A DNA stretch of 60,392 nucleotides from Chloroflexota bacterium (GTDB taxonomy: Bacteria > Chloroflexota > Anaerolineae > Caldilineales > Caldilineaceae): positions 1-60,392 of the forward strand of contig JBCCHB010000104.1 in the NCBI GenBank assembly GCA_039028975.1, given 5' to 3'. How positions within the stretch are numbered: the first letter of the stretch is position 1; every line of letters starts with the position of its first letter. A program made the translations under genes and the position numbers. Positions 13,897 to 33,357 of this stretch are shown here, in pieces. The notes beneath the pieces were generated by a model. That model saw only the letters and a list, made by a program, of their open reading frames with translations. It did no database searches and was not told the origin of the DNA.

Positions 13897-14003
13897 ATGA
13901 GTGAATGCTTTAGATAGACGGTCTGATGGGTAACTGCTGGTTAGGCGCTGTACGATAACATGAACAGGAGCAGTTCGTTGTTCCAGCGAGGTTATGGTTG
14001 ATA

Positions 14004-15301: not shown

Positions 15302-15393
15302 AAACCCTCATCACCACGTCTTTAAATATTGTGAGGCATTAGAAAGATTTTATTCCATAAAAACGTTGTACAGTTTATTTGCAATTCTTACAT

Positions 15394-15583
15394 ACTCTAA
15401 TTGCTAACCTCTATTAGTGCTTTTGCTAGAGAAAGAAACTAGTTCGGCTTGTTATGTCAACTCCGCCTGATATGTGTGGAAAACACAGCATCAGGCATCC
15501 AAACAATTTACCGTCACGCACTGTATGCTGTGTGCCTTTTAAATTAGCCACTATATACATCCAGAGTAGGTTAGCAATTAGAG
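15394..15583. repeat. Perfect 16-bp inverted repeat (CTCTAATTGCTAACCT / AGGTTAGCAATTAGAG) separated by 158 bp, ~90 bp downstream of the integrase gene.
   Basis: Left arm 15394-15409; right arm 15568-15583 is its exact reverse complement. Confidence 0.5.
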
Positions 15584-15874
15584 TTACATATCTTAATACC
15601 AATTTTAAAAAATTACCCAACCTCTGACACATGTCGTTCAGGCTAAGAGGTTATATTATCAGAATACCCCTATGATGATGTTTGAATGATTATTAGATGA
15701 CCGTGAATGAATATTCAGCGGAAAGGATGCGCTGTAGGGGTTTGAAGTCCAACGGTACAAAAACGCGGGAAATAACTAAAACTTCAATGTTACCCCCTCT
15801 ACAATCTATCGGCTGTAAGTTGCATGGTATCAGAGTGGTTTTATTTCGCAGATATACGCCGATCTAAAAATTAA

Positions 15875-16636
15875 ATGTATACACAGCATCCAGTGTTCAT
15901 GCCCCCTGAAAACGATAGCGCTCGGATTTGGCGATATTTAGATTTCACAAAACTAGTGTCACTATTTGAATCACAATCGCTCTTCTTCGCTCGTACAGAC
16001 AAACTCGGTGATCCCTTTGAGGGATCTTGGCCACAAAAAAACTTGCGCGTGGTAAGAGATAACCTTCCCGATATTCCTGTTGACAAGCATGAAATCTATT
16101 TTATGGACGTGGCCAACATTAGCAATCTCTTGAAAAAGTGGGCAGAGTGCAATGCGATCAGTTGTTGGCATCTAAATGAGCAAGAATCCGCGGCAATGTG
16201 GAGACTATATCTTAAGAGTGATGAGGGAATTGCAATTCAATCGACATTTGCACGTCTTCGTGATTCGATAACCGATGACAGAACCGTTTACATTGGAACA
16301 GTCCGCTACATTGATTATGAGACAGATTGGTTTGATCCAATTAACCTTTACGAGGCTCTGCTACACAAAAGAAAAAGCTTTGAACATGAGAGAGAATTGA
16401 GGGCTGTTGTCACAGCAATATCAACCGGTCCAGAGGAAAGAGAAATCGACTTTAGCAAGTCAGAAATTACTGATGGAATCAAGATCGCTGTGAATGTTAA
16501 TATGCTGATTGAAAATATTTACGTAGCTCCTGATGCGCCAACATGGTTTACGGATCTCGTGAGTTCTATTGTCAACAGGTACAAATACAAGTTCAATGTC
16601 CAACAATCGAAGTTGTCTGAGAGACCAATCTACTAA
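15875..16636 (+). CDS. DUF2971-family protein (abortive-infection-associated family).
   Basis: 'IWRYLDFTKLVSLFESQSLFFARTDKLGDPFEG' matches the DUF2971 N-terminal signature (YrY.s...l..l....l.fs....fNDPfE). Confidence 0.55.
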   Translation: MYTQHPVFMPPENDSARIWRYLDFTKLVSLFESQSLFFARTDKLGDPFEGSWPQKNLRVVRDNLPDIPVDKHEIYFMDVANISNLLKKWAECNAISCWHLNEQESAAMWRLYLKSDEGIAIQSTFARLRDSITDDRTVYIGTVRYIDYETDWFDPINLYEALLHKRKSFEHERELRAVVTAISTGPEEREIDFSKSEITDGIKIAVNVNMLIENIYVAPDAPTWFTDLVSSIVNRYKYKFNVQQSKLSERPIY

Positions 16637-16737
16637 ACGAGAACGATCCGATATATACATGGCACCGCTTTCATTTTCAATGAATCATGTGTTTATGCTT
16701 TGTCCTGCACCTTGGGCGAGCTGTGCCAAACGCATAT

Positions 16738-18351: not shown

Positions 18352-18696
18352 CCGATAACGACGGGTAATACTCTATCACTAAATAATAATCCGCTCGACT
18401 TCATCAAGACTGATCGCATTACTCGTTCTATCATGAATCCTGGTTACATCTGGTGAAGAATCAATGAATATGGTGAACGTGTCCTGCTCTGCTTCTTGAG
18501 TTAATGCCGGAATGTGTGCAGAAGCGGCGACCGCAAGATCCTAGGGTTTTGAATGGAGCGACAAGTGCGTTTGGCATGACACATTCTCCAGCGGGAATTA
18601 TACTTCATGACCAGGGATTGTGTCTACGAGAGTGTTTAGCATAAAGCGGCTTATGTTATATGTTAAGGAAGGTTAATGTGGGGATGCTCCAGGCTT

Positions 18697-19080
18697 TTAT
18701 CGGATCGTTTTTACTTGACACAGACTCAGGGTCTCCCAAGATCTATCGGCAGTGACGGCGATAAACTTGCGGCTGCAAGCGACGGCAAGGCAAGCACGAT
18801 CGCCAAAGGATAAACCAGCCTGTTTCGTCATTGGGCGCAATCGTCCTGCTTCCCAGGATAACTGACGATCAAAATCAACGATATTTCCGATACCGATCAC
18901 AGAAATTATCGTCGTCACATCCGCTTCGCTCACGCCTTTCTCCAAGAGTTTTGCAATGACTTCGGAAAGGTTGACTGAGCATATGACAGATGCAGGTATC
19001 AGTGGGGTGACTGCATCACTTCCTGTCTCATCATTGAGTAGCGCAAGCACTGCGGATGCATCCAGAATAAAATCAATCAT
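18697..19080 (-). CDS. vapC: VapC PIN-domain toxin.
   Basis: 'MIDFILDASAVLALLNDE' (PIN N-terminal Asp) and 'LSFGDRACLAVA'. 8-nt overlap with the upstream antitoxin. Confidence 0.8.
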   Translation of the reverse strand: MIDFILDASAVLALLNDETGSDAVTPLIPASVICSVNLSEVIAKLLEKGVSEADVTTIISVIGIGNIVDFDRQLSWEAGRLRPMTKQAGLSFGDRACLAVACSRKFIAVTADRSWETLSLCQVKTIR

Positions 19081-19321
19081 CTCCTGCCTCTTGTCGGCGA
19101 TCCGTAATTAATTCATCGACAAGAGGTGTGTCTGGAGGCAGATATTGGCGCAGAAGCTTCTGCGCCTTTTTCACGGCTTGATCGTGTGAAATAAGCCGCA
19201 ATTGCCCATTCTCCAGGATCAGGGTCAGTGCATCGCCGATCTGTAATCCTAACTCTTTACGAATAGATGCAGGAATCACGATGCGGTTCCCGTGCATAAT
19301 TTTGGCAGCCTCAGAAATCAT
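19073..19321 (-). CDS. vapB: AbrB/SpoVT-type VapB antitoxin.
   Basis: 'GNRIVIPASIRKELGLQIGDALTLILENGQLRL' is a swapped-hairpin AbrB/MazE-like fold. Confidence 0.75.
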   Translation of the reverse strand: MISEAAKIMHGNRIVIPASIRKELGLQIGDALTLILENGQLRLISHDQAVKKAQKLLRQYLPPDTPLVDELITDRRQEAGDD

Positions 19322-19668
19322 GGCGTAAAACCTATTTAGTGCATATCATACAAATATGCCACATCATAGGTTAAATCAGAAGCAAAAAGAGTTCATGCTC
19401 ATTCTTTCAACGTACAGGATACGGATTTAGAGTCACGAAAAACCTGCTTTCATCATTGATAATTCGGTGAGCAACATTCGGGGGCAAAGTGGAGAGCGGA
19501 GCCTCTTTAGCATTACCTGTTTCTGTCACACGCGAAACATTTGCAACAGCTTTCAGATATTAGCAATTGAGATAATTCTGTGGATTTATTGCGATAAGAT
19601 TCAACCCGATACGTTTTGGTTGCCTTTCAGATGAAGATAGTGCATTTTGGTGCCTATTATTACCGCAA

Positions 19669-19968
19669 ATGAAGACGTATTCTGCGATGACCAGCCGTTC
19701 CAATACCGATAAACAGCAACGTAAGATACAGATGGACAGGGAAATCCTGGACGTAGACGGAGCCGCCGCTTTGCTAGGCGTTTCCAAACGCACCATCTAT
19801 AAGCTAGTCAGTGATGGAGAACTGCCAGCCAAGAAAGTTGGCAAGGAATGGCGATTCTCCAAGAAAAAGCTTGTGGAGTGGGTCACACAGGGCGAACCAC
19901 AGGGGAATACCGATTCTGCCGAAGCGCTCCTTAAAAATCCTAATATCCGCTTTGGTTCGCGTTCATGA
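19669..19968 (+). CDS. Excisionase/AlpA-like HTH (HTH_17) DNA-binding protein.
   Basis: 'LDVDGAAALLGVSKRTIYKLVSDGELPAKKVGKEWRFSKKKLVEWV' matches the excisionase-family HTH. Confidence 0.65.
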   Translation: MKTYSAMTSRSNTDKQQRKIQMDREILDVDGAAALLGVSKRTIYKLVSDGELPAKKVGKEWRFSKKKLVEWVTQGEPQGNTDSAEALLKNPNIRFGSRS

Positions 19969-19969
19969 C

Positions 19970-20623
19970 TTATCTGTCTCTCAGCACTATCGGTAGTACT
20001 CCATCCTTATAGTAGGCTTCTGCTATCCCAAGGTATCTACGAAGCCCATAGGGAAAGGTAGCCACGGCTTCAAAGGGAATATTTCCTTCTGTCACCCGTT
20101 TAACGCCTGTTGGCCTCTTGCCACGTTTGCTAAGAGGGCCATCCACTGGTACGCGTTTCGTGGTGCTTCTTCCGGCCTCTATTCCCTCGAACCCTAACAG
20201 GGGAGCTAAACGGTTGACTTCTGTGATCCATTGCGGATCGTTATGGGAGGTGGTTCCGGTCATACCACCAAGATGGTAATGTACCGAAGCATGAATACAT
20301 TCATGCAGCAACACATCAAAGGCAAAAGACTGGCCAAGCCATTCGGATGGCACGCCCCAAGGCTCTTTGGCTGCTGTGCCGCCAAAGACGGAAGGATGCA
20401 TGATCATGGTTGGTGGATGCCTGTCACTGGCAGCGCACTGCCCCAGGCATCTCCCATGTGCGGTCAGAGAGAGAATCAGGTGCGGATATGGTAAAGCACC
20501 CTCAAACCACGCTGCATTGATGGCGTCAAAGGCTGCATAGAGCCACCTGCCCTGCTCTCCATAGAATGTCTCTGCCACCAGATGGCAAGCCTCTCTCACT
20601 GCAACTTCGTTCCTGTAACACAT
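19970..20623 (-). CDS. SprT-like zinc metalloprotease-domain protein.
   Basis: HExxH in 'VLLHECIHASVHYH'. N-terminal 'FDAINAAWFEGALPYPHLILSLTAHGRCLGQC' is a SprT-like pattern. Confidence 0.6.
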   Translation of the reverse strand: MCYRNEVAVREACHLVAETFYGEQGRWLYAAFDAINAAWFEGALPYPHLILSLTAHGRCLGQCAASDRHPPTMIMHPSVFGGTAAKEPWGVPSEWLGQSFAFDVLLHECIHASVHYHLGGMTGTTSHNDPQWITEVNRLAPLLGFEGIEAGRSTTKRVPVDGPLSKRGKRPTGVKRVTEGNIPFEAVATFPYGLRRYLGIAEAYYKDGVLPIVLRDR

Positions 20624-20751
20624 AACAACATGTTACAGGATAGGTAGCTGGTAGTAAAGGCAGATTCAGAATCCAGGCTTGGGTAAACTTGCATGACAAA
20701 TCAACAGAAAATACGATGGCAAACAGTACTAATCTATGCTATAAGTAAAGA

Positions 20752-21003
20752 ATGGCTATTGTTATTGATACTCTTCAGGCAATGAAGGCTCTCACAGAGG
20801 GCGGTGTTTTTACGCAAGCTCAGGCTGAGCGGATTGTCGATGTAGTGGCCGAAGCAAATGATGATGTGGCCACAAAGGGTGATATGAAAGAGTTGCGAGC
20901 AGATCTCGAGATTCTTCGTCGTGACATCACTATCAAAATGTATGTTTCTACCTTCAGTGCAGCAGCATTTGTCATTGGTGCCATACGGCTAATGGGTATT
21001 TAG
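20752..21003 (+). CDS. Small coiled-coil/membrane-anchored hypothetical protein (DUF1640-like).
   Basis: ORF with a C-terminal hydrophobic tail 'STFSAAAFVIGAIRLMGI'. Confidence 0.3.
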   Translation: MAIVIDTLQAMKALTEGGVFTQAQAERIVDVVAEANDDVATKGDMKELRADLEILRRDITIKMYVSTFSAAAFVIGAIRLMGI

Positions 21004-21191
21004 GCAGAGAACCTTCTCTTATTGCCCCGGCAATGGCAATTTTCCCCTCATCCATTTCCATAATGGAGTTGATCGTGCCAAAATCCCCCAATTTGCATTG
21101 CCAGGTATGTGTGTACCAGGGTATGTACACTGGAAAGTTAGCATCCGGTTTTTCAGCACAAGACTTTCACTCAGATATTTCTCATCTCATT

Positions 21192-22241
21192 TTACTGATG
21201 CCTTCTCTTTTCATGGACTTTACGACAGAAGCCGATAAATGCTGCATCAGGATTACGGGGCGGCTCCGTCATCCATTCCCGCCACTCCTCCTCCAAATTA
21301 TAAATATCGCGCCCTGGGGCGGCTAAACGGGCTTTGTGATATGTATCCGGCTTCAAAGGAGGGCAGAAGGGACCAGTTTGTTTATCCTCCTCTATGCACA
21401 ATGGCATTGTGTTTCTATTTCTAAACTCCACCTGATCCGCCTGCTCATAAAAGATGACTGTGTAATCTGGTAAATGATCGTGTGCGGCCAGATGCTTTAT
21501 AGATCGGCGAAATTCTTTCAAGGAAGCTTTAGAACCAGATTTTTTATGCATTACCTCCAAAGATACAGACCACCTCTCTTGTTGGCCGCAGTGTTTTCTG
21601 GCTAATTCATAGGTTCTTCGCTCGATGGGCTTCCGTAAGCGGAAATAGTCACGATGTAGAGTCAATACTTCGCGTTCGCGTATTGCATCAAAGACCCAAT
21701 CTGATAACACAACCTCACAGTAGAGTAAGCGCCCATCTAGGCCGAATTTTCGGGCTACCGTTGCTGCTTCAATCAGGCCAAATGCTTCCCATTTCTCCTC
21801 GTCACCTCGGTGTATATTGGTGCGGATACGTGTTCCATCCAAACGATCTAAAGCCTCGCATAGAGCCTGATAATCCTTGCCAGCCGTTCCCCGATTGGTA
21901 AATTTCAGTAACTCATGTGCATTGAGACGTACTCGCTTACCAACTGGTTTATCTTCCCTAAGTCTTGCGATAACCTGAGAAATCGCATATATCAAGATAT
22001 CTTTATCGTATATGGTCGCTAATCCCTTCACACTGGGAACAACCTCTAACCAATTGCCATTATGTTCGTATCGCCGGATATTAGTCTCTGGCTTTTTCGA
22101 CAAAGAATAAAATGGGTGCTCCATTTGCGGGATAATGTCTTTCAGTACCGCATCTGCAACATCGCAGATAAACAGATCGTGCTGCGGATGACGATCCGGT
22201 AATAGTTGGTCGTCGTTGTTGTTCGGGGTTTCACACACCAT
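21192..22241 (-). CDS. repA: Plasmid replication initiator protein RepA (RPA family, PF10134-like).
   Basis: 'MEHPFYSLSKKPETNIRRYEHNGNWLEV', 'GLATIYDKDILIYAISQV' and 'LLKFTNRGTAGKDYQALCEALDRLDGTRIRTNI' match conserved RPA-family blocks. Iterons lie immediately upstream and overlap the start codon. Confidence 0.8.
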   Translation of the reverse strand: MVCETPNNNDDQLLPDRHPQHDLFICDVADAVLKDIIPQMEHPFYSLSKKPETNIRRYEHNGNWLEVVPSVKGLATIYDKDILIYAISQVIARLREDKPVGKRVRLNAHELLKFTNRGTAGKDYQALCEALDRLDGTRIRTNIHRGDEEKWEAFGLIEAATVARKFGLDGRLLYCEVVLSDWVFDAIREREVLTLHRDYFRLRKPIERRTYELARKHCGQQERWSVSLEVMHKKSGSKASLKEFRRSIKHLAAHDHLPDYTVIFYEQADQVEFRNRNTMPLCIEEDKQTGPFCPPLKPDTYHKARLAAPGRDIYNLEEEWREWMTEPPRNPDAAFIGFCRKVHEKRRHQ

Positions 22242-22372
22242 AGAGTATGTTTCGGGGTTTTACACACCCTTGTCAAGAACTTTCGGGGTATTAAACACCG
22301 CCTGTAGATAAACCGGATTTTACCCACCAAGTTTCGGGGTTTTACACACCAAAATTCGGGGTTTCACACACC
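22222..22372. repeat. Iteron array: five copies of an 18-bp TTCGGGGTTT(T/C)ACACACC repeat with 22- to 31-bp spacing, plus a degenerate half copy.
   Basis: Copies at 22222-22239 (overlaps the repA ATG), 22251-22268, 22282-22299 (degenerate), 22333-22350 and 22355-22372. Half copy near 22311-22328. Confidence 0.75.
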
Positions 22373-22475
22373 GCCTAGTTCAAATAATAACCTAAAATCA
22401 AACCCCTATAAGCAAAAAATTTCCTTTAACACCTATTTAACACCTATCTAACACACTACGTGCGCGAGGAAGCCT

Positions 22476-22484
22476 GTGGATAAC
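22476..22484 (-). promoter_or_regulatory. Consensus DnaA box (TTATCCACA on the minus strand) next to the AT-rich stretch and TTAACACCTAT repeats.
   Basis: 'tgtggataa' at 22476-22484. 'ttaacacctat' x2 at ~22425-22447. An AT-rich run at 22380-22420. Confidence 0.4.
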
Positions 22485-22514
22485 ACCAAATTCTAATGCC
22501 AACATAAAAATTGC

Positions 22515-22632
22515 ATTCGCTCAAAGAGCGAATAGATTTTGATTAGTACCTACCCTTCGGTCGCCATGCTCCCTACGCCCCACACCTACGGTGTGGCCTA
22601 AAATGCATGAGCGATGCATTTGCATCGCTCAT
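22515..22632. other. Cluster of three perfect hairpins (8-bp, 7-bp and 12-bp stems) between oriV and the primase gene. Candidate oriT, single-strand initiation site, or primase loading site.
   Basis: attcgctc-aaa-gagcgaat (22515-22533); ccacacc-tac-ggtgtgg (22580-22596); atgagcgatgca-tt-tgcatcgctcat (22607-22632). Confidence 0.45.
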
Positions 22633-22776
22633 AACTCATCCTGATGACTAGGCAATGACAACAGAACGCAGCACTCCATGCAGATGTGGAAATGCAAAGA
22701 GAGTCAAAAAGAAGACTGATGAAAGAAAAAATAAAGGCTTTTTTGGGGTTGTTGGTTAACAAGAGGAAGGGAATAC

Positions 22777-23769
22777 TCAAGCGATGCAGGCGGCTAGTCT
22801 GTTTTGGATGAGGAAGGCATTGTAGTCATGGAAAGAGGCATAGAGGGGAGATTGATCGATGAGGGTAAGGTCTGGCAGCTTCTCTTGTAGGTAAGAGACT
22901 AACTCTTTGCCTGTATCATCATGATCTAGATAGAGATGAACCTCCCCTACTCCCATCTCCTGGATAGTTTCCACAGCACGTTTCCTTAGAGAGGCAGAAT
23001 TGAGAATGATCACGGGCATGGGCAGTGTCCTACTGCCTCTATGTTGCATCCAGGACAGAAAATCCATAAAGCCCTCAAACATGGCAACAGCATCCGGTAT
23101 GGATGCTGTTGCGTGTTGTGGAGACAGCAGGGTGAGATCTTTCTTGCCTTGGGCGCTCTTGAAGCCACGGGAGCGGAGTTCATACCCACCGCTCCTACTG
23201 GCAAAGGCAAGAGAATAGAAGCGTCTATCACCACGTTGATAGTGCATCTCCTGTAGCCAGGGCATTGCTATCGCTTTGTCGATACCACGTTCTTTCAGAT
23301 ACTGAATTAATCCTAAACTCTGCAAAGGAAGGATTCTAAGCACCGTGAGAGCATCATCCGCACCCTCCGGGTGGGATTCTCTATCCAAACCCTCTTTCGC
23401 TGCTCTACGGGCATCTATGGCCCTTTGGTGCGCGTCCTCCCACAAAGAAGGCTGCACAGGTGCAAGCGATGGATCACCCAGGCTCGTAGAGCGGGCAATC
23501 GGTAAGGCTTCCAGCTTGCGTAAGGCTCCCGCTACATCATCCACAGCCAAGCCGTAATACAGGCACACAAATTTCAGGATGTTGCCCCCTACCCCAGACC
23601 CGTGGTCGTACCAAGCTTTCCCGTCACGGCTTATCTTGAAAGACGCATCACTTTCTTGCCGCCAAGGACTACAATACCACCACTCCCCTCGGACCTGGCG
23701 GACCGCCTCACACCCCAAAGCCGAAAGCAAGTCTCGAATATGGATGGTCTTGGCCTCTTGGGTGCGCAT
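22777..23769 (-). CDS. Primase-like protein: degenerate CHC2-type Zn-finger-like N-terminus plus C-terminal Toprim domain (plasmid TraC/DUF3991-like).
   Basis: 'WYCSPWRQESDASFKISRDGKAWYDHGSGVGGNILKFV' (primase Zn-binding-like, with cysteines largely lost). C-terminal 'VHLYLDHDDTGKELV' is a Toprim acidic motif. Confidence 0.55.
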   Translation of the reverse strand: MRTQEAKTIHIRDLLSALGCEAVRQVRGEWWYCSPWRQESDASFKISRDGKAWYDHGSGVGGNILKFVCLYYGLAVDDVAGALRKLEALPIARSTSLGDPSLAPVQPSLWEDAHQRAIDARRAAKEGLDRESHPEGADDALTVLRILPLQSLGLIQYLKERGIDKAIAMPWLQEMHYQRGDRRFYSLAFASRSGGYELRSRGFKSAQGKKDLTLLSPQHATASIPDAVAMFEGFMDFLSWMQHRGSRTLPMPVIILNSASLRKRAVETIQEMGVGEVHLYLDHDDTGKELVSYLQEKLPDLTLIDQSPLYASFHDYNAFLIQNRLAACIA

Positions 23770-24138
23770 GGAAAACTTTCTTTTTTCATGAATAATATGT
23801 TTCTCGAAGGCGTATGAGTGTTCTAACTTAAAAAATCTTTATAAACTCATGAGCATCTCCAACTCAGAAAGTGCAATTGTGACGTAATGTCAATACAATT
23901 GAGCTATTGCACTTGTGAACAACTGCACAGCAGAGCTAACATACACGTGTATTATTGTAGGCTCATATTGGATTCCTGGGATCTAATGCAAAGGGTCCCC
24001 AAGCAGATCCTTGGAATCCATCATGAGCCTTATTGTATAGCCTTTCTGCTGTATGATTGTACTAAAAAACAGTTGTTTCTCTATATAATTGCGCTATTGT
24101 GCAGTTGTATAGCAATTAATCTAACGAAGTAGAGGGCC

Positions 24139-24888
24139 ATGATTACAGCATTCATCAATCAGAAGGGAGGGGTAGGAAAAACAGCTACGGTTCTTCAAGC
24201 AGGTGGCATTCTGGCTGCTTCGGGCAAAAGGGTTCTACTTGTGGACGCAGACCCACAAGCAAGCTTATCTATCGATTTTGGTATTGAATCCCCTGATCCA
24301 GGATTAGATGACGTCATACTAGATGGTCGTTCAGTGAATGATATTATTCATCAGGTAAGAGATAATCTCGACTTAGCACCGACATCAATTCATCTGGCGC
24401 GAGCCGAACTTGAATTACAGAGCGCCTTTAATCGCGAATACCGAATGAAGGATGCATTAACCCCACTCCGAGATAAGTATGATCATGTACTCATTGATTG
24501 CCCTCCTAGTCTTGGCTTAATGGCTGTCAATAGTTTGGCAGTTAGCGACGACATCGCAATTGTCATGTCGTGTGATTATCAAGCCTTGATGAGTGTCGGG
24601 CTTCTGTATGAATCTGTGGTGGCACTCAAGGCTCAGATAAATTCAGACCTCTCAATTCGAGGACTCATTCGCACACGCTATGACGGACGCACAAATCATT
24701 CTGAATCAGTAGCACAAAAGGTAGTCGAATTATACGCCGACTATTTCCATATCTTTGATACGATTATAGGTGAACGCACAGTTATAAAGGATGCGACTGC
24801 TGCACATCAATTGATAATCGAATACCAGCGAGGTAGCGATGCTGCAAAAGACTATATCAAGCTGACAAAGGAGGTCTTCGGTGAGTAA
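24139..24888 (+). CDS. parA: ParA/Soj-family partition ATPase.
   Basis: Deviant Walker A 'INQKGGVGKTAT'. ParA-typical 'LLVDADPQASLS' and 'VLIDCPPSLG'. Confidence 0.9.
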   Translation: MITAFINQKGGVGKTATVLQAGGILAASGKRVLLVDADPQASLSIDFGIESPDPGLDDVILDGRSVNDIIHQVRDNLDLAPTSIHLARAELELQSAFNREYRMKDALTPLRDKYDHVLIDCPPSLGLMAVNSLAVSDDIAIVMSCDYQALMSVGLLYESVVALKAQINSDLSIRGLIRTRYDGRTNHSESVAQKVVELYADYFHIFDTIIGERTVIKDATAAHQLIIEYQRGSDAAKDYIKLTKEVFGE

Positions 24889-25231
24889 GAAGCAAGGTAG
24901 CCCATTAGATTCTCTGCAACGTCGTGACCTTCCAAAACTGGATGATATTAAATCTGTGCGAGAAAACAATTGTACAGTAGAACAGTTAGACAGTAAGAAC
25001 GAAGTTGCAAAAGAACCGACGCGATCTTCCAATGTGACTTTACCTATTTCTATGTGGGATTGGATCGACGACCGACATCGTGAAATCCAGCGTAGCGGAT
25101 GGCATTCTATTCGTAAAGCTGCTGTGATTCGAGCTATTATCCAAACTGCTATATCGGTTGAGGTTGATCTGACAGGTGTGACAACAGAAGAAGAAATATC
25201 TCAACGGTATAGAAGTGCAATTCAACAATAG
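24881..25231 (+). CDS. Small partition/centromere-binding protein candidate (ParG/RHH-like). Overlaps parA by 8 nt.
   Basis: Genomic position and coupling to parA. 'NVTLPISMWDWIDDRHRE' is an RHH-like beta-strand/helix. Its stop lies inside a 36-bp palindrome. Confidence 0.45.
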   Translation: MSKKQGSPLDSLQRRDLPKLDDIKSVRENNCTVEQLDSKNEVAKEPTRSSNVTLPISMWDWIDDRHREIQRSGWHSIRKAAVIRAIIQTAISVEVDLTGVTTEEEISQRYRSAIQQ

Positions 25232-25258
25232 CACAGTTGATCAACTGTGCTATTGTTG
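25223..25258. promoter_or_regulatory. Perfect 36-bp palindrome CAACAATAGCACAGTTGA|TCAACTGTGCTATTGTTG. Candidate centromere (parS/parC) or operator site.
   Basis: 18+18 nt exact reverse complement. Related CTATTG...GCAGTTG/CACAGTTG motifs recur upstream of parA at ~23900-23930 and ~24090-24115. Confidence 0.6.
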
Positions 25259-25279
25259 AATTGGCGATGTTTCAAACAT

Positions 25280-26362
25280 CTAATCCCCTTCTCTTTCGAT
25301 GAACCCGCATGTTAGGTTTATAATAGTGTTTGTATTGATATCGTAAGTGATAGAATAGGGTATATTGGAAATGGTTTTGCCGATAAAGTCTCCGTGATCA
25401 GAGCAAAAGACGATTATAGTTTCTTCGCGTAGTGATAGGCGGATCAATGCATCCAGGATTTGACCAAGAGCATCGTCAATAAAGCGAACCATGCCATAGT
25501 AGACCGCCAACAGTCCATAGATATCTTCTATGTCATCATTGCGTACACCTAGCATCTCATATAGCATCCGATTGCGTTCGGGGGCAGTGCCGTCGTTAAA
25601 TTCATCATCTCGCCAGGGCGGCAGGTCAATCTTCTCTTTGGGGAAGATAGCGGCGTATTGCTCAGGACAGACCCAAGGCTCGTGGGGATCGGGGATGGAA
25701 ACCCATAGGGCAAAGGGTTGGATATCTGATTGAATCCCAGAAAGGTTGCCAGGGTTGTCATCCGGCTGGGTATTGGATAAAACTTCCCGCCTGCTGGCAT
25801 ACTCTTCCAGAAAGCGGATGGTCTGGCCAGCCACCAATCCAGTGGAATAATCTTCAAGCGGAAAGTCGTTGGTGGCGTAGGCAAAATGGGGATTTTGGGG
25901 CGTCATCGTGCGCCGCAACTCATGGGCTGCATGGATTCCCGAAAGTGGGCGGAACCACTCCATGCCCTTGGTCTCAACCTTCTCTGGTAGGCCACTATGA
26001 GAAATTTCGCAGTAGGTATCAAAGAGAGCTAAATCCTCAGCCTGAGAAAAACAGTGGTTTTTCCCAATCAATCCCACATGGTACCCCGCCTCTTTCCATA
26101 GACGGACGCCATGCTCAACCCCCGCTGGCATAGGTGTCTCATTTCGCCGGCTACCGTGAGAGTGAGGCCACTGGCCTGTCCAAAAAGAGACCCGGGCGGG
26201 CATACAGAGCGGATGAGGCGTAAAGGCATTTTCAAAGAGAACCCCCTCGTCCGCCAAACGAGCCATATTTGGTGTCTCGCAGAAGGAATTGCCATAGAGA
26301 TGGCTGGCTGTCGCCTTCTGCTGGTCAGTCATGATTATGAGAATATTAGGTTGATTAGGCAT
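25280..26362 (-). CDS. Cys-type sulfatase (arylsulfatase family).
   Basis: 'ILIIMTDQQ' and the 'PLCMPARVSFWTGQWPHSHG' sulfatase signature (C-x-P-x-R). Confidence 0.85.
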   Translation of the reverse strand: MPNQPNILIIMTDQQKATASHLYGNSFCETPNMARLADEGVLFENAFTPHPLCMPARVSFWTGQWPHSHGSRRNETPMPAGVEHGVRLWKEAGYHVGLIGKNHCFSQAEDLALFDTYCEISHSGLPEKVETKGMEWFRPLSGIHAAHELRRTMTPQNPHFAYATNDFPLEDYSTGLVAGQTIRFLEEYASRREVLSNTQPDDNPGNLSGIQSDIQPFALWVSIPDPHEPWVCPEQYAAIFPKEKIDLPPWRDDEFNDGTAPERNRMLYEMLGVRNDDIEDIYGLLAVYYGMVRFIDDALGQILDALIRLSLREETIIVFCSDHGDFIGKTISNIPYSITYDINTNTIINLTCGFIEREGD

Positions 26363-26394: not shown

Positions 26395-28410
26395 CTAAAA
26401 GTCGAGCGCTTCATCAATAATCTCATTACTCTCCCGGACCGTATCATACTCACTACGAGCCTCTTCTAGAATGCGACCGATACCTTCGATGCGTTCGCTC
26501 AGCTCTTCGTCACTTTGGCTCGATTGCCAAGCCTGCCTTAGTAGATCTTCGAAGGATTTGGCCCCCTCGATATTTCCTAAGATCAGGTCGAGTTCCCCAA
26601 TCACCAGCTCGAACATACGGATCTTGCGGGCCAAAAGCTCAATGACGTGAGACTCAATGGTCTCATTGCAGGATAGGTTAAATATGGTCACATCATGAAT
26701 TTGGCCGAGGCGGTGGAGACGTCCAATGCGCTGCTCGACCCGCATAGGATTCCACGGCAGGTCATAGTTGATGAGCTGATGGCAGAATTGGAGATTGCGC
26801 CCTTCTGCACCGCTCTCGGTAGAGACCATCACGCGCATCCCTTCTTCACCTTCATCTCGAAATGCTGCGACCGCGGCCTCTTTCTGCTGAATGCTCATAC
26901 CGCCATGGAACCCGGTTGTAGGGATGTTCAGTTCGTTGAGCCGATTGACGATGGTCTCCTGAGTTTGCCGGTACTCAGTAAAGATGAGGAATTTGCCCGG
27001 AAACTGTTCCAGTAGTTCTTCTACAGCAACCAACTTCCGCCCGATAGGAATAGAACGGGCTAGATCTAAAAATTCCTGTAACTCAACCCGAGCATCATCG
27101 CTGTAGGCCCGATCATTGACCATCTTCTGGAGCGTGGAAGCGACGGCTTGAGGGCTACTGCTTAACTCGCGTTGTAGGATCGTCAGCGTTAGGCGCAGAA
27201 ACTTGCTATTTTCTGTGTTGCGGAAGCGTTTGCGGATATAGTCCGTAACGTCTTGGTAGAGCTTAAATTCGGCTTCACTAAGCGTTAAATGGTAGATGGC
27301 TGCTTGTCGCTTGGGGAATTGAACGTCCACTTTGCTGCGACGGTTGCGAATCATTACATCATTAAGCAAATGACGCAGGGATTGGGCATTTCTGGGTTGT
27401 CGTTTATCAGCTTGATCCAAAAAGTGGCGGCGGAAGGCTCGAGCCGTACCTAATTGTCCAGGTGAAAGAATGGTAATGAGGCTGTACAGCTCCAGGAGAT
27501 CATTCTGAACCGGCGTGGCCGTCAACATAAGAATGTAGCGCTTACGGATTTTGTTGACGAATTGCCAGGCTTGGGTACTACGATTTTTTAACTTATGAGC
27601 TTCATCGATGATGAGCAGGTCGTAATCCCGTGCCAGAATAACGTCACTATGGTCTCGACGTTTGGCCCGATCGATGGACGTAATCCAGCGACCGCTCTCT
27701 TCTTGGGCCAGAGCACGCCATTCAGCTGGCTTGTTGATGACGGTAAAGCGTTCGTTGAACTTGCCTTCCAACTCTTCGCGCCACTGTTCAGTTAAAGATG
27801 CAGGCGTCAACACCAGCACTGTACGCACGAGGCCACGCTGAATCAACTCCTTCATAATGATGCCGGCTTCAATGGTTTTACCTAATCCGACCTCATCCGC
27901 CAGAAGCGCACGGCCTCGCATATCGTTAAGCGCCTGGTGAACTGCTTGGATCTGGTGTTCATAATGCTCTACATTAATAGAGTCGAGGCAAATCAACTGG
28001 TCAAAGCCGGTGCTAAGGCTCAGCTCTTCTGCCTCTAATCGAAGCTGGTAGAGAGGTAGTGGCTCAGGCATCCGGATACGACCATGAGTACGAAAGAAGT
28101 TGGTCAGATTTTGAGGTGTCTCAATGACCCTTGGTGGCAACGTAACGCCAAAACGAGCGATCTTCTCTGCCATTTCGTGATCAATGTTGTACCGATACCC
28201 ACAGCGGAAACAAGCTGTTGCCTCTTCTTCATCAAGCCAGTTGCATTGAGGACAGCGCTTACCCATGACCGTCGGGGTCACCTTCTCTGTCTTATTCAGC
28301 TCTTTCTCAGCTTCGTCTGGTATTTCAAGCCATTCAAACCGCTCTTGCATTGGGATAGATAGGTCCTTACGATGCCCGCCGATCTGCGGGGATCTTGGTT
28401 TTGGCAGCAA
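26395..28410 (-). CDS. SNF2-family helicase with N-terminal zinc ribbon. Alternative start is Met at ~28350.
   Basis: 'CPQCNWLDEEEATACFRCGY' (Zn ribbon); 'LADEVGLGKTIEAG' (motif I); 'LLIIDEAHKLKN' (DExH); 'NYDLPWNPMRVEQRIGRLHRLGQ' (motif VI). Confidence 0.85.
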   Translation of the reverse strand: MLPKPRSPQIGGHRKDLSIPMQERFEWLEIPDEAEKELNKTEKVTPTVMGKRCPQCNWLDEEEATACFRCGYRYNIDHEMAEKIARFGVTLPPRVIETPQNLTNFFRTHGRIRMPEPLPLYQLRLEAEELSLSTGFDQLICLDSINVEHYEHQIQAVHQALNDMRGRALLADEVGLGKTIEAGIIMKELIQRGLVRTVLVLTPASLTEQWREELEGKFNERFTVINKPAEWRALAQEESGRWITSIDRAKRRDHSDVILARDYDLLIIDEAHKLKNRSTQAWQFVNKIRKRYILMLTATPVQNDLLELYSLITILSPGQLGTARAFRRHFLDQADKRQPRNAQSLRHLLNDVMIRNRRSKVDVQFPKRQAAIYHLTLSEAEFKLYQDVTDYIRKRFRNTENSKFLRLTLTILQRELSSSPQAVASTLQKMVNDRAYSDDARVELQEFLDLARSIPIGRKLVAVEELLEQFPGKFLIFTEYRQTQETIVNRLNELNIPTTGFHGGMSIQQKEAAVAAFRDEGEEGMRVMVSTESGAEGRNLQFCHQLINYDLPWNPMRVEQRIGRLHRLGQIHDVTIFNLSCNETIESHVIELLARKIRMFELVIGELDLILGNIEGAKSFEDLLRQAWQSSQSDEELSERIEGIGRILEEARSEYDTVRESNEIIDEALDF

Positions 28411-29314
28411 TAAATTGACGATGGGTTAAGTTTAACTTGTAGGAAATGTTGTAGATCTCCTCAGCCTCCTGAGCCGTGACATATCCATCCGCATCAGCGA
28501 TGGTGAAAAGGAGGTCAAGCAACTCTTCTCCTTCATCAGACGTAATGGTGGTTGCCAATTCTCGTGTCAAACGCAGAAAATCCATCTCTGCGCTGACTTC
28601 GCTAATGGCCACTTGGGCAATAAAGAGCGCCTCATCGCTGCTAACAGAAAGATCCTGCTCTAGATGAGTCGTCATGGCATTGAATTCACTGTCGGTGACT
28701 TGCTGGTCGATGTGGGCTATCCGGGCCATAAGCCCGCCAATTGCCGCTAGACGACGCAATTGTTCATCAGGCAGATTGAGGCTGAATGCCTCGCCCTCCA
28801 GCCGCCGTTGAATGCCGTAGTAGACCTTATTGCGGATAAATTCATCAAAGTATCGTTCCCGATTAGGGGCCTGGCTGATAGCTTGCTGGCGTCGCTGGAA
28901 GGGACCTTGCAACAGGCGAGAAAACTGACCAAAGATGTTGAGGTTGACCTGATCCATCGCCTGCTGAATCTCGGTCACAACAGCTTTCTCTTCAGAGGTA
29001 ATTACGCCATCGGCATGGACCAAGTTATCCAGATACTCTAAGGCCAACTTTTTATCGTCATCCGTACGCAGCTGGGTCTGTAATTCTTCGATCAGGTGAT
29101 GACGCTCGTCGGCAGATATAGGCGATTCGATGAACATTTCCAGGCGCGCCCATTCGATGGAATTTAAACGACGGTTGCCGCTTTTATGGGTTTCGGGTAG
29201 CTTATAGAGCAGATCTTTAAGTAGATTTTGCTCCTCATCAGTCAGTTCATTGTCTGCCCAAGCTGCTGCAATGATCACTTTCGCCAGGGCAAGGATTAAG
29301 TTTCGTTCGGACAT
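28367..29314 (-). CDS. Tandem TerB-domain protein.
   Basis: 'LALAKVIIAAAWADNELTDEEQNLLKDLL', 'LVHADGVITSEEKAVVTEI' and 'LLFTIADADGYVTAQEAEEIYNI' give the TerB (xADGxhxxxE) signature at least twice. Confidence 0.65.
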   Translation of the reverse strand: MSERNLILALAKVIIAAAWADNELTDEEQNLLKDLLYKLPETHKSGNRRLNSIEWARLEMFIESPISADERHHLIEELQTQLRTDDDKKLALEYLDNLVHADGVITSEEKAVVTEIQQAMDQVNLNIFGQFSRLLQGPFQRRQQAISQAPNRERYFDEFIRNKVYYGIQRRLEGEAFSLNLPDEQLRRLAAIGGLMARIAHIDQQVTDSEFNAMTTHLEQDLSVSSDEALFIAQVAISEVSAEMDFLRLTRELATTITSDEGEELLDLLFTIADADGYVTAQEAEEIYNISYKLNLTHRQFIAAKTKIPADRRAS

Positions 29315-29322
29315 ATTTCCCT

Positions 29323-29691
29323 TTATTTTTCTTCAAGTCGTACCAGATTCCGCACAGAAATCCAGCCCCACTCATTCTCCTCTGTCTTGGCCCAAGCCCA
29401 TCCGTTGAGAACGTGCGAGACCGTTACAAACGCGCCTATAGTGAGCGTCAACTCGTGGGCTGTATACGTGCCCTGTGCCGTTGCCCATTCACCATCTACA
29501 TGTAGAAGTTGTAGCGGAACCCAGCCTTGTTTGCCGTCGGCATTTTCGCACTTAACCCAATTTGCCCATTCCGGATCATCTGTAAACTTCTGGATTACTT
29601 GCACCAACTCTCCAGCAACAAAAGTAATAGGGTCTGGGTTGGTGGATTCGTGGGCGCGATGGACCATGTGGGTTGGTTGATATGAAGTCAT
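29323..29691 (-). CDS. Small protein with two SH3-like repeats.
   Basis: 'FVAGELVQVIQKFTDDPEWANWVKCENADGKQGWVPLQLL' and 'ELTLTIGAFVTVSHVLNGWAWAKTEENEWGWISVRNLV' follow the ELxhxxGxxVxV...W..a....G.xGWhP pattern. Confidence 0.5.
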   Translation of the reverse strand: MTSYQPTHMVHRAHESTNPDPITFVAGELVQVIQKFTDDPEWANWVKCENADGKQGWVPLQLLHVDGEWATAQGTYTAHELTLTIGAFVTVSHVLNGWAWAKTEENEWGWISVRNLVRLEEK

Positions 29692-29697
29692 TATTTA

Positions 29698-31089
29698 TCA
29701 CCCAGACCGTATGGTCAAATCTACATCAGCAGGGGTGAAATAAAGTTGGGCGTTGCCCTCACTTAGTCGTTCTAGCGCCTCTTGTTTACGCAGGGTGTTG
29801 AAGATAGCTACCTTCTCAGCTATAGGCAGATCCTCGCCAAGACCGTTGAGGAATGCTTGTACCCGCTGGGCCTCGGTTTCACCTGCTATAGCTCCCTCGA
29901 TTTGGGCATGTTGCCGACGGAGGTCAAGTAGTTGGCCGCGCTGTTGCTCCTTCTCAATTTCGCCTTGAAGCCCCTTTAAGCTGACTTCGTTTTCGCTCTC
30001 CTGCTTCTGCAGCCGGTTGATGCGATTGGTGGTTTCGTTGATGATCTCTTGGAGCACTTTTTGGGTGCTTGGATCCTTGCTGCTTACAGAACGAACTTCG
30101 ACCGCGTGTAGCGCAACGCCTCTTGCCAGATAGAAGGTCAGATCCCCTTCGATAATCACGCTGCGGATAATTTCGTTGAACGAGGCCAGGAATTGCTCCA
30201 GCGTAACCCGAGAGACGGCCTGAATGATCGCGCTTCGAGCATGGGAACAGATATCCCCTGGCGTGTCATCGGTGGTGCCAATCATCTTCTCTAAATCGGA
30301 GATCTCCCAAAAGAAGGTGACGCCGATAACCAACTCAACATTGTCTTGAGTGCGCGCCTCGAATTCATACCACATAAATTTGGGGCGTAGATCAAAGTGG
30401 GTGATCATCAGATTCCGCTGGTCTTTATAAATGCCACTTGACCAACGTAACGCCACCAGCTCTTGATGTGGCTCCAGGAAAAAGGCTCGTTTCGTTTCGT
30501 CACTGCCTCTGTGAAAGAGATAACGCCCGTTTTCGTCTTTAATAATGACTGCTTCGTTATCCTCTAACCGGATGCGCTTGCGTACTTCTGCCACCTCCTG
30601 GTGGGGCTCTGGCACAAAGACCTGCTTGTTTGTGATAAGAGATAGCTGCCCCGTGCGGTTGTCTCGCACCAACACGGCCGTCTCTTCATCAATATTCACG
30701 CCGACTTGTACAGCGTTGATCACATCTTCGGTAGGAGATAAATAAATGGTCTGCTCACCCCGTTCAACCCGAACGGTGCCAGTAAGATTGTCGATCAAGC
30801 AGACATATTCGTTTTGCCGGAGGGTAATGCTCTGCCGTTCTTCTACGACCTCGTCTTCTGCCTCCCGGAAAAAGAGCGTAGGACCGATGACATTACGCAA
30901 TTCACCAGTCAATGTGTTGCGGATAAGTAAATAATCGATAGGGCCGAGCGTTGTGGCCTTGAGTCGTGTAACTTTCCAAAGGGGTGGAATAAAGGCCATC
31001 TTGGGGCCATTTATCATGAATCGTCGAGTAAATGCCTGAACAAGCAGTTGCTCATCATCTTTCAGAAAGTAGTATCGGGGGAAGAACAT
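29698..31089 (-). CDS. Major-vault-protein-like protein: four ~45-aa MVP-type repeats, an SPFH/band-7 (vault shoulder-like) domain, and a C-terminal coiled coil.
   Basis: Repeats 'YLLIRNTLTGELRNVIGPTLFFREAEDEVV', 'YVCLIDNLTGTVRVERGEQTIYLSPTEDVI', 'VLVRDNRTGQLSLITNKQVFVPEPHQEVA', 'VIIKDENGRYLFHRGSDETKRAFFLEPHQELV'. Compare the vault repeat '[29 protein letters not shown]'. Then 'DNVELVIGVTFFWEI' (SPFH-like) and a heptad-rich tail. Confidence 0.55.
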   Translation of the reverse strand: MFFPRYYFLKDDEQLLVQAFTRRFMINGPKMAFIPPLWKVTRLKATTLGPIDYLLIRNTLTGELRNVIGPTLFFREAEDEVVEERQSITLRQNEYVCLIDNLTGTVRVERGEQTIYLSPTEDVINAVQVGVNIDEETAVLVRDNRTGQLSLITNKQVFVPEPHQEVAEVRKRIRLEDNEAVIIKDENGRYLFHRGSDETKRAFFLEPHQELVALRWSSGIYKDQRNLMITHFDLRPKFMWYEFEARTQDNVELVIGVTFFWEISDLEKMIGTTDDTPGDICSHARSAIIQAVSRVTLEQFLASFNEIIRSVIIEGDLTFYLARGVALHAVEVRSVSSKDPSTQKVLQEIINETTNRINRLQKQESENEVSLKGLQGEIEKEQQRGQLLDLRRQHAQIEGAIAGETEAQRVQAFLNGLGEDLPIAEKVAIFNTLRKQEALERLSEGNAQLYFTPADVDLTIRSG

Positions 31090-31367: not shown

Positions 31368-32282
31368 CTACAACTCTAGACTATAAGCAGCCCGTACACC
31401 CATGCCCGTATCGCCATAATTGGCACAAACGATACGGGTGGCGCATCGGCAGAGATCCCATCCGTAGTTGAAGCAACCGCCTCTTTGAATCCCATCCGGG
31501 TCTTTATGCTCGACGTCTACGAACGGTTCATCCCATATCTGTCTCCCCGTATATTGATGATAATCATCTGCCACCCACTCGCTAAGATTGCCGAGCATGT
31601 CGATCAACCCAAAGGCATTGTGCTTGCCTTGGTGCTCATCTTCTTTGTGGTTTAGATAGTGATAGTATTCGTTAAAGATAGCCTTGTAGTCGTAATCATA
31701 TTGTGTATGATTTTGCTTCATCCAGCAATAGGACGGATCTGGATCATTGCCCCAGTAGAAGAGGGTCTGGCTTCCTGCACGGCAAGCATATTCCCACTCT
31801 GCTTCAAGGGGCAGGCGTAGCCCAACTTTGGTTAATAAGGCAACTGCCTCATCTCTTGAGACTGCATCAACAGGATACTCTTCCCCAAATTCAAAGGTGA
31901 GATTTGCCCCTCCATGCTGACGCCAAGCCCCTTCTGTCACCATAAATCGGCTGAGTAGGAAGGGGGATAGGGTTACCTCAACTGTCGGAGACTCAGATGC
32001 ATCGCCACGATAGCCTTTCTGTTGAAGCAGTGCTCTTTCTTCATCTGAGGAGCCGAGCAGAAATGTGTCACCTGGAATGAGATGAAAGAGCATGTCGGTT
32101 TGTCTATGACGATAGACTCCGATCGCATGACTTTGAGCACCACATGAGAAACGCCTCATTTCAACAAAGTCAAAACGGTTTGCCAAAGTTTCAGATGCAA
32201 CGTTCAGAGCATTGCGCCGCTCTTGATCTGTTGCTTCATCCCAAACGTTGATTCTCTCAAGCAAATTGTGCGGGTTCATCAT
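31368..32282 (-). CDS. Formylglycine-generating enzyme (FGE/SUMF1) family protein. The ORF is open to 32450; likely start is 'MMNPHNLL' at 32282.
   Basis: 'FHLIPGDTFLLGSSDEE', 'TVEVTLSPFLLSRFMVTEGAW', 'RGGCFNYGWDLCRCATRIVCANYGDTGMGVRAAYS' are FGE-sulfatase domain blocks. Confidence 0.7.
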   Translation of the reverse strand: MMNPHNLLERINVWDEATDQERRNALNVASETLANRFDFVEMRRFSCGAQSHAIGVYRHRQTDMLFHLIPGDTFLLGSSDEERALLQQKGYRGDASESPTVEVTLSPFLLSRFMVTEGAWRQHGGANLTFEFGEEYPVDAVSRDEAVALLTKVGLRLPLEAEWEYACRAGSQTLFYWGNDPDPSYCWMKQNHTQYDYDYKAIFNEYYHYLNHKEDEHQGKHNAFGLIDMLGNLSEWVADDYHQYTGRQIWDEPFVDVEHKDPDGIQRGGCFNYGWDLCRCATRIVCANYGDTGMGVRAAYSLEL

Positions 32283-32298
32283 AAACGTAATCCTTACC

Positions 32299-33357
32299 TT
32301 AATCGAATGCCACCTGGTATCGTGGATTCCCAGCAATCTCAACGGCTTGACCACTCTCAATAGAGTCGATGGCGGCGCTGAGCATGGCGAAAACCTTGAG
32401 GTTTTTGCGTCCACTAAAGGGCGGTTCCTCACCTTGCGCTCCTTTGCCAATGGTCACGTATTTGTACCAGACATCAAAAAAGGGAGCAAAGGGTTTAACA
32501 AGTGGCACAGCGGCATCAATCTTCACATCATCAAAATCACCCAGAGCAGGTGCAAATTGATAGCTCATCTGATCTTTGGACATGTGGAGACCATGGCATC
32601 GTAGCACCCCTTTTGTCCCCTCAATGCGAAATTCATACATGCTGGATTGTGCCGAAAAACCACCATGATAGCCCATGTGCAGCCCGTTACTAAAGCGTAT
32701 CAATGCATTGACCATGCATGGTCCAACGTAGGGTGACCAGGAGGGGATAAAGCCATCACAGGAGATCCACTCGGGCTCATACCCAGGGAAAACTGCCAAG
32801 AAGGAGTCGAAGTGATGACACGAGGTTTCGTATAGGGCTGGCTGAAGCATCTTGGCCAGATTAAGTGCTTTGGGACGAGGTTTGCTATTCATGAACCAAG
32901 CGCCTTCTGGTTTACCTAGCTGACCGGAGCAGATAAATTGGGCCACAGCCTGATAGTGCCGATTATATCGCATCTGCTGGCCTACACTCAGAGTCAATCC
33001 GCTCTCGTCGGCTAATCGAACCAAATCAACTGCTTCCTCAAAGTTGTTGGTAATCGGTTTCGCTACAAGTACATGAGCACCAGCCTGTAGGATCGTCTTG
33101 GTCTGCTCATAATGCAGATCGGATGGTGTGTTGATGAGGACGGCATCTGGACCTAGTTTAGCTAGGGCTTCCCCTAGATCTTTGAAGGTAGCTTCTCTTG
33201 GGATACCCAGCTTTTCCTGTGCATTGGCTAGGGCATCATCACGTATATCAACGATACCAGCCGTCTCATACCACGGCTTCTCCACTAAGAGAGATGCCAT
33301 GTGATTGCTAACCCCGCCCCACCCTACAATGAGGCAGCGAATGTTCTTCCCAGCCAT
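32299..33357 (-). CDS. Gfo/Idh/MocA-family NAD(P)-dependent oxidoreductase.
   Basis: N-terminal Rossmann fold 'IRCLIVGWGGVSNHM' and 'AGAHVLVAKPI'. Confidence 0.85.
   Translation of the reverse strand: MAGKNIRCLIVGWGGVSNHMASLLVEKPWYETAGIVDIRDDALANAQEKLGIPREATFKDLGEALAKLGPDAVLINTPSDLHYEQTKTILQAGAHVLVAKPITNNFEEAVDLVRLADESGLTLSVGQQMRYNRHYQAVAQFICSGQLGKPEGAWFMNSKPRPKALNLAKMLQPALYETSCHHFDSFLAVFPGYEPEWISCDGFIPSWSPYVGPCMVNALIRFSNGLHMGYHGGFSAQSSMYEFRIEGTKGVLRCHGLHMSKDQMSYQFAPALGDFDDVKIDAAVPLVKPFAPFFDVWYKYVTIGKGAQGEEPPFSGRKNLKVFAMLSAAIDSIESGQAVEIAGNPRYQVAFD

Follow-up and report, generated by a model that had tools for sequence, protein, structure and literature searches.

Does a tightly packed run of bacterial genes, one of which encodes a homologue of eukaryotic major vault protein (MVP), represent a conserved system, or are its members merely neighbours on one chromosome? 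This question is raised by a contig of a Caldilineae-like Chloroflexota metagenome-assembled genome (assembly GCA_039028975.1, contig JBCCHB010000104.1, positions 1 to 60,392; hereafter the window), in which seven co-oriented minus-strand genes surround and include an MVP-like gene. Directly behind it follow genes for an SH3 protein, a double-TerB protein and an SNF2 ATPase (26395-31089 together). A sequence-only reading had described these four genes, and inspection of the sequence together with Pfam bore out their content and coordinates. It had also taken them for a four-gene cassette, possibly a nucleic-acid surveillance module built on a vault/SPFH scaffold, which was inserted between a sulfatase and its formylglycine-generating enzyme (FGE) maturase. 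We consider it highly probable that the locus is instead a series of chromosomal genes which lie close together in one orientation and are independent in evolution, that the MVP-like gene encodes a mini MVP, and that no four-gene system exists. The genes would probably be co-transcribed in this genome, while each follows an evolutionary course of its own.

The four genes are not conserved together

The MVP-like gene does not keep the same company in other bacteria. Among 44 loci that encode an MVP-like orthologue (41-78% identity), not one has an SH3, TerB or SNF2 gene nearby, and tblastn did not retrieve a match to any of the three proteins within up to 10 kb of the MVP-like gene in 41 such loci, even at E<10. 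Clustering of the flanking open reading frames (ORFs) revealed no neighbour family that is common beyond close relatives, namely the Herpetosiphon loci and, with FGE-domain genes, three Oscillatoria loci and the window. When 108 flanking proteins were scanned with Pfam, 149 families were obtained, none of which occurred in more than three proteins, and neither TerB nor SH3 nor SNF2 was among the families listed. The three closest MVP-like orthologues with gene context illustrate this variety: one (L131, 78% identity) is flanked by genes for an acyl-CoA dehydrogenase and an AMP-binding enzyme, a second (L001, 75%) has an AlkZ-like gene behind it, and behind the third (L135, 75%) lie genes for an acetyltransferase and a WYL protein. 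In many bacterial phyla, the MVP-like family is a stand-alone gene among unrelated housekeeping genes.

The double-TerB family, which is widespread in Anaerolineae/Caldilineae (361 homologues), was followed in the same manner. SNF2, SH3 and MVP-like genes were absent from all 80 metagenomic double-TerB loci (42-52% identity; 52 of them with at least 800 nt downstream and 57 with at least 500 nt upstream), and no family was found in more than five of 107 neighbours of the metagenomic TerB genes. The double-TerB gene also stands alone in three genomic loci (L042, 65%; L044, 62%; L045, 49%). In assembly GCA_019217005.1, the TerB orthologue (65%) is located on contig 58 and the SNF2 orthologue (76%) on contig 42, both with unrelated neighbours, and no TerB gene was observed near the SNF2 orthologues of L048-L050 and L133. 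The proposal of a conserved surveillance cassette had been staked in advance on the four genes being conserved together, and they are not: the tblastn search of 41 loci, the ORF clustering and the Pfam scans of 108 MVP-like and 107 TerB neighbours all speak against it, and we rejected it.

FGE-domain genes were considered as true partners of the MVP-like gene. They recur near it in four cyanobacterial or Anaerolineae loci, as fusions with Ser/Thr kinases. In Oscillatoria (L023:11820-13679, L024:11777-13630), a longer MVP-like gene (547-551 aa) is followed by such Ser/Thr-kinase-FGE-domain fusion genes. Fusions of this kind are common in cyanobacteria, and we treat the association as a probable coincidence, though a recurring one.

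A five-repeat bacterial homologue of the major vault protein

The MVP-like gene (29698-31089, minus strand) encodes a protein of 463 aa. When this protein was compared with all PDB sequences by phmmer, only MVPs were significant (E=1.4e-7 to 3.5e-6). The match to rat and human MVP (E=1.4e-7) is a single alignment of query residues 64-459 with MVP residues 356-780, a span that we take to comprise the final repeats together with shoulder and cap helix. The Pfam profile MVP_shoulder (PF11978) matched residues 236-316 with 26.6 bits, above the gathering cut-off of 25. MVP_shoulder is also precomputed on most orthologues, and PF17795 and PF17796 are recorded on many of them. The shoulder profile, one of those suggested as a check by the sequence-only reading, was thus confirmed. 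Vault_3 stayed below its cut-off in the window protein (20.6 versus 28.8 bits) but is precomputed for many orthologues, and the vault-type repeats become apparent at the structural level.

An AlphaFold2 monomer model, computed from a 45-sequence alignment (mean pLDDT 85), consists of five beta-sheet repeat units, an alpha/beta shoulder and a long helix. The five vault-type repeats occupy residues ~5-48, 52-90, 94-133, 137-175 and 179-233 (30385-31089, minus strand), as delimited from the model, hhalign and Foldseek. They are followed by the SPFH/Band-7-like shoulder at residues ~236-338 (30076-30384, minus strand; PF11978 and model), which is the most conserved block of the 45-sequence family alignment. 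A cap-helix-like long alpha helix comprises residues 340-416 and 423-444 (29758-30075, minus strand; model and phmmer alignment to MVP). The ~19 residues behind the last helix are of low confidence (pLDDT blocks of 55, 48 and 42; below 50 for residues 456-463). Comparison of repeat profiles by hhalign showed the repeats to be real (R2-R3, E=3e-10; R2-R4, E=1e-11), with a weaker fifth repeat (R3/R4-R5, ~1e-4) and a first one that is diverged and not significant in register. There are five repeats in the model, rather than the four initially counted.

Foldseek searches against the PDB returned MVP structures as the top 12 matches (E=7e-24 to 1e-17). A second tier (E=3e-10 to 1e-6) was made up of HflK/C, stomatin, prohibitin, erlin and flotillin, and a fragment that contains only MVP repeats R1-R7 (3gnf) was matched separately (E=4e-9). 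Together with the phmmer and MVP_shoulder matches, these results confirm the compact bacterial MVP-like architecture that had been proposed from the sequence: the protein is a genuine compact bacterial MVP homologue, in which vault repeats precede an SPFH/shoulder domain and a cap helix.

The protein shares its overall plan with eukaryotic MVP (rat and human; PDB 4V60, 9R86, 9BW5), in which beta repeats lead to an SPFH-like shoulder and a long cap helix. MVP is considerably larger (~860-890 aa), has nine repeats and forms closed 39-fold half-vault shells, whereas the window protein has five repeats and a shorter cap helix, and a counterpart of the C-terminal cap-ring of MVP was not identified in it. 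Vault RNA, TEP1 and PARP4 accompany MVP; in contrast, no Rfam family reached its gathering score anywhere in the window, and thus no vault-RNA analogue was found, while the neighbours in more than 40 orthologue loci are unrelated housekeeping genes. The same reduced plan of five repeats, shoulder and cap helix is known from MVP homologues of Asgard archaea (Nat Microbiol 2026, PMC12962969), for which multimer modelling suggested a closed cup. These are archaeal and the window protein is bacterial, and the two are likened here by architecture. SPFH cages, i.e. HflK/C, stomatin, prohibitin, erlin and flotillin, have the shoulder/SPFH fold and a long helix for ring or dome assembly in common with the window protein, but they are membrane-anchored and without vault repeats, whereas the window protein carries five N-terminal repeats and no hydrophobic segment. 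Kyte-Doolittle analysis predicted no hydrophobic or transmembrane segment in the MVP-like protein (maximum of the 19-residue windows, 1.08), which is therefore predicted to be soluble, unlike classical SPFH proteins. By analogy with MVP and SPFH proteins, it would most likely form a soluble ring or cup by self-assembly, with the shoulder and the cap helix as the contacts.

Bacterial relatives of MVP have been noted before. Daly et al. 2013 list A9AUD4 of Herpetosiphon aurantiacus among putative bacterial MVP homologues (PMC3762200), and the Herpetosiphon aurantiacus orthologue with exactly this sequence (UniRef100_A9AUD4) shares 56% of its residues with the window protein in a full-length comparison. 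It belongs to the same family and is a well-supported Chloroflexota addition to this already known group of bacterial MVP homologues. Both Daly et al. 2013 (PMC3762200) and Sokolskyi 2019 (10.1101/872010) focus on long homologues (~800-880 aa) from gliding bacteria and cyanobacteria, and neither gives gene context or experimental data. We found no experimental characterization of any bacterial family member in the literature.

Recent work speaks of MVP homologues in "few Bacteria" (PMC12962969). Our profile search of 1.84 billion representative proteins retrieved 1310 relatives at E<=1e-3, counted as clusters at 50% identity, 287 of which were found at E<=1e-30. A scan of genome collections located MVP-like orthologues (41-75% identity) at 41 loci, which derive from Chloroflexota, Cyanobacteria, Sericytochromatia, Elusimicrobia, Cloacimonadota, Muiribacteriota and Oligoflexales. 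The 1310 clusters stem from these groups and from others. The five-repeat form is far more widely distributed than the literature indicates, and it is a stand-alone, strongly conserved gene (~55-78% identity between phyla). A phage origin of the family was also considered and set aside, since an IMG/VR scan gave no MVP-like relatives, which is a weak negative result because only two peptide patterns were used.

The relatives range in length from ~460 to ~960 aa, with several matched stretches (extra repeats) in the longer ones, and one protein has 3381 aa. This suggests a continuum of repeat numbers from the mini form to full-length MVP.

The distribution of the five-repeat form is relevant to vault function and to the question whether the origin of MVP lies with Bacteria or with Asgard archaea. 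As small soluble proteins, mini MVPs could be tractable cryo-electron microscopy targets for a minimal vault-like cage. More speculatively, the five-repeat mini MVPs might constitute a large, mostly unrecognized bacterial family that assembles soluble vault-like cups, with the SH3, TerB and SNF2 proteins as possible clients or partners in this one lineage. We regard this proposal as doubtful, but cups in bacteria, if they exist, would bear on the origin of eukaryotic and Asgard vault proteins.

The SH3, double-TerB and SNF2 proteins

The SH3 gene (29323-29691, minus strand) encodes a protein of 122 aa, for which a tandem of SH3 domains had been proposed. The first domain is clear (SH3_2, E=4.7e-13, residues 10-63), whereas the second half on its own matched SH3_1 only (E=0.007). 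The two halves nevertheless align better with each other than 498 of 500 shuffled sequences (score 41 versus 23.5 +/- 5.1). The protein is a small cytosolic one in which a clear SH3 domain is accompanied by a diverged copy. The double-TerB protein (315 aa; 28367-29314, minus strand) matched PF05099 in two stretches (79.7 bits), as anticipated. No other ter genes (TerA/C/D/E/Z, TelA) were detected among the window neighbours examined or among the 107 neighbours of TerB orthologues. Like the SH3 protein, the double-TerB protein is small and specific to the lineage.

The SNF2 ATPase is encoded on the minus strand at 26395-28410 if its longest ORF is considered, and at 26395-28350 (651 aa) if the ATG start of the database entry is used. 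It contains an SNF2-rel_dom (137.6 bits) and a Helicase_C domain (76.1 bits). The predicted zinc ribbon is seen as a CxxC-x10-CxxC motif in the sequence (residues 53-70; 28201-28254, minus strand), although the profile Zn_ribbon_3 remained sub-threshold (E=0.0017), and this region is 84% identical in the near relatives L046 and L132. The overlap with the TerB gene that had been reported along with the ribbon hinges on the choice of start codon: it applies to the longest ORF, which begins with a TTG, while the ATG at 28350 leaves a gap of 16 nt.

More than 100 clusters at 70-84% identity were found for the SNF2 protein in Caldilineaceae, Litorilinea and Caldilinea. Among proteins of solved structure, RapA is the closest to it (E=2e-39). 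The two proteins resemble each other in the ATPase core and in a conservation pattern typical of core genes; RapA/HepA has 968 aa and RapA N-terminal domains, whereas the window protein has 651 aa and an N-terminal zinc ribbon. Only the ATPase core aligns with the NCBIfam RapA model (NF003426), at 215.5 bits versus an equivalog cut-off of 576. From its identity of 70-84% across Caldilineaceae and its proximity to RapA, we infer that the SNF2 gene is a core gene for a RapA-like translocase and no defence gene. Its product would act as a DNA/RNA-polymerase-associated translocase.

In Chloroflexi bacterium TSY (L048:4473-5981) and Litorilinea aerophila (L049:4276-5784), a gene for a 502-aa AAA ATPase lies directly before the SNF2 orthologue. 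The two AAA ATPases are 78% identical to each other and have no counterpart in the window. They may represent a real conserved partner of the SNF2 protein.

Alternative readings of the locus

The genes of the block are closely spaced. Counted from the MVP-like gene on, the gaps amount to 6 nt (to the SH3 gene), 8 nt (TerB), 16 nt (SNF2 from its ATG) and 32 nt (sulfatase); the FGE-domain gene is separated from the MVP-like gene by 279 nt. No convincing minus-strand terminator was detected between the genes; a promoter and terminator scan returned counts no higher than in shuffled sequence and was hence uninformative. Given gaps of 6-32 nt and no terminator that stands out, the MVP-like, SH3, TerB and SNF2 genes and the sulfatase remnant are likely co-transcribed in this genome. 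Co-transcription in one genome does not imply a shared function.

Several observations weigh against the independence of these genes. A single transcript, which is likely here, leaves room for a functional link that is specific to the lineage. The adjacency of TerB and SNF2 recurs in two near relatives: TerB (70%) precedes SNF2 (84%) in L046, and in L132 the order is TerB (69%), SNF2 (84%) and sulfatase (81% over its first 134 aa). A pairing of TerB with a helicase exists in a validated defence system, Shango, and the locus borders a mobile, defence-like region. Finally, the neighbourhood of SNF2 orthologues was sampled at a handful of loci.

A lineage-specific operon would accommodate the first two of these points. 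The double-TerB protein, possibly together with the SH3 protein, would then work with the SNF2 ATPase, e.g. in membrane tethering or regulation under stress, and the MVP-like gene would have been recruited recently upstream. We consider this unlikely. Close spacing, co-orientation and the lack of convincing terminators are what such an operon would display, and the TerB-SNF2 neighbours of L046 and L132 are joined by L047, the only locus with an SH3 orthologue (53%) upstream of TerB (71%). In L047, however, the upstream gene encodes an aminotransferase and there is no MVP-like gene, and even close MVP-like orthologues are never found beside SH3 or TerB. The linkage of TerB and SNF2 orthologues is already lost at 65-76% identity, in one case inside a single genome, and SNF2 is missing from 80 of 80 more distant double-TerB loci. 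Moreover, SNF2 is far more conserved than TerB in the relatives that have both (84% versus 69-70%), as would be the case for independent core functions. Beyond L046, L047 and L132, the nearest relatives, neither of the gene orders TerB-SNF2(-sulfatase) and SH3-TerB is kept, and this is ordinary short-range synteny.

The same order bears on the supposed insertion of a cassette between sulfatase and FGE. L132, the closest relative, has the same SNF2-sulfatase junction as the window, which shows this junction to be native and the sulfatase to have had no recent insertion next to it; the genes for TerB, SNF2 and sulfatase follow each other natively in L132.

It is very improbable that the genes make up a new system for anti-phage defence or nucleic-acid surveillance with a vault/SPFH scaffold, or a diverged variant of Shango with TerB and helicase. 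TerB domains do occur in defence systems, namely in Shango, Bunzi and Dionysus, and the adjoining region of the window contains methyltransferases, a CHAT-EAD1 protein and a PDC-S31 candidate. The SNF2 protein matched the DrmD, BrxH, DpdE and ZorD models of PADLOC, though with its helicase core only. The corresponding NCBIfam equivalogs remained far below their cut-offs (DrmD, 279.9 versus 950 bits; BrxH, 276 versus 610; DpdE, 221.9 versus 500; ZorD, 85.4 versus 1500), and none of the DISARM, BREX, Dpd or Zorya partners (PglZ, DrmA/B/C, ZorA/B, Dpd) adjoins in the window. Since PADLOC and NCBIfam produced only such generic matches to the SNF2 core, membership in a defence system was rejected. 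In PADLOC, the MVP-like and SH3 proteins had no match, and the TerB protein had only a weak match to PDC-S48 (E ~1e-3), with no named system retrieved when the limit was relaxed to E<=10. The database used was PADLOC-DB 2.0.0, which we take to include the Shango models. Besides the missing co-conservation, the core-gene pattern of SNF2, the host-like base composition of the block (G+C ~0.50, compared with 0.39-0.46 in the adjoining mobile stretch) and the lack of relatives in the IMG/VR pattern scan also speak against defence.

The combination of genes had been thought to occur in no named system. This overlooked the anti-phage system Shango, which combines a TerB-like protein, an ATPase and a DEAD/DEAH helicase (10.1101/2022.11.11.516204), although the locus does not match it. 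The likeness consists in a TerB-domain gene beside a gene for a helicase-type ATPase of superfamily 2. Shango is a three-gene system (SngA, TerB; SngB, ATPase; SngC, helicase), whereas the window has no ATPase gene between TerB and SNF2, its helicase is an SNF2/RapA-like core gene, and TerB and SNF2 are adjacent only in the nearest relatives. As a new defence or stress system the locus does not hold up; the value that remains is modest and lies in the MVP-like protein.

That the 463-aa protein could be an ordinary membrane SPFH protein of the HflK/C or stomatin type with a superficial likeness to vault repeats is scarcely credible: many orthologue entries are named "SPFH domain-containing protein" or "HflC" and Band_7 (PF01145) is precomputed on many of them, but in Foldseek the E-values of MVP structures are better than those of the other SPFH structures by a factor of at least 10^7, the MVP fragment made up of repeats alone is matched separately, the sequence match spans repeats, shoulder and cap helix, a hydrophobic segment is missing, and no NfeD-type partner gene was found near the MVP-like gene in the window or among the flanking proteins of its orthologues.

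Sulfatase, FGE-domain gene and adjoining mobile region

The genes on either side of the block had been interpreted as a sulfatase and its FGE maturase. The Cys-type sulfatase gene (25280-26362, minus strand) contains a CMPAR motif and matches Pfam Sulfatase, but it is truncated at its 3' end. Of the 301 model positions, the match includes no more than 1-253, and the reading frame leaves sulfatase-like sequence after the motif SDHGDF (~25385) and continues into AT-rich junk. A search at the far edge of the low-G+C region (7-8.7 kb) did not recover the lost 3' part. The sulfatase is a remnant that was cut by, or abuts, an integrated plasmid-like element.

The FGE-domain gene (31368-32450, minus strand) encodes a protein of the FGE-sulfatase (SUMF1/EgtB/PvdO) superfamily (PF03781, 99.1 bits). 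As its longest ORF overlaps the neighbouring gene for a GFO/IDH/MocA oxidoreductase (32299-33357, minus strand) by ~150 nt, Met57 (32282) appears to be the likelier start. The best PDB matches of the protein are ToxD and human FGE (both ~1e-11), and ToxD was deposited as a serine/threonine kinase, not as an FGE. All NCBIfam matches fell far below their cut-offs. In a single pairwise phmmer alignment, the position of human Cys336 is taken by Tyr, while Cys341 is kept. Judged from this alignment, one catalytic Cys appears to be missing and the gene probably encodes no canonical FGE. With a truncated sulfatase on one side and such a protein on the other, the two probably do not form the supposed pair of enzyme and maturase.

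To the right of the block, the window contains housekeeping genes, including those for SelA, an M50 protease and DnaB. The 60-kb window (1-60392) as a whole yielded neither tRNA nor tmRNA genes.

On the other side, a lower-G+C (0.39-0.46), mobile or plasmid-like stretch extends over positions 8000-25400 of the window and ends at or inside the truncated sulfatase. It encodes a peptidase C25-like protein (8610-10040), a remnant of a Tn3-type transposase (within 12.6-14.7 kb, minus strand), a phage-type integrase (14666-15301), RepA (21192-22241), a Toprim/CHC2 primase (22777-23769) and ParA (24139-24888). A defence-like pair is found at 15875-18351, which consists of a protein that matches the PADLOC candidate family PDC-S31 (E=2.6e-22) and, on the opposite strand, an EAD1-HTH-CHAT (caspase-like) protein of 537 aa. 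DNA methyltransferase genes are present at 5012-5890 (N6_Mtase, fragment-like) and at 6505-7269 (N6_N4_Mtase; a type II methyltransferase according to PADLOC, E=6e-92).

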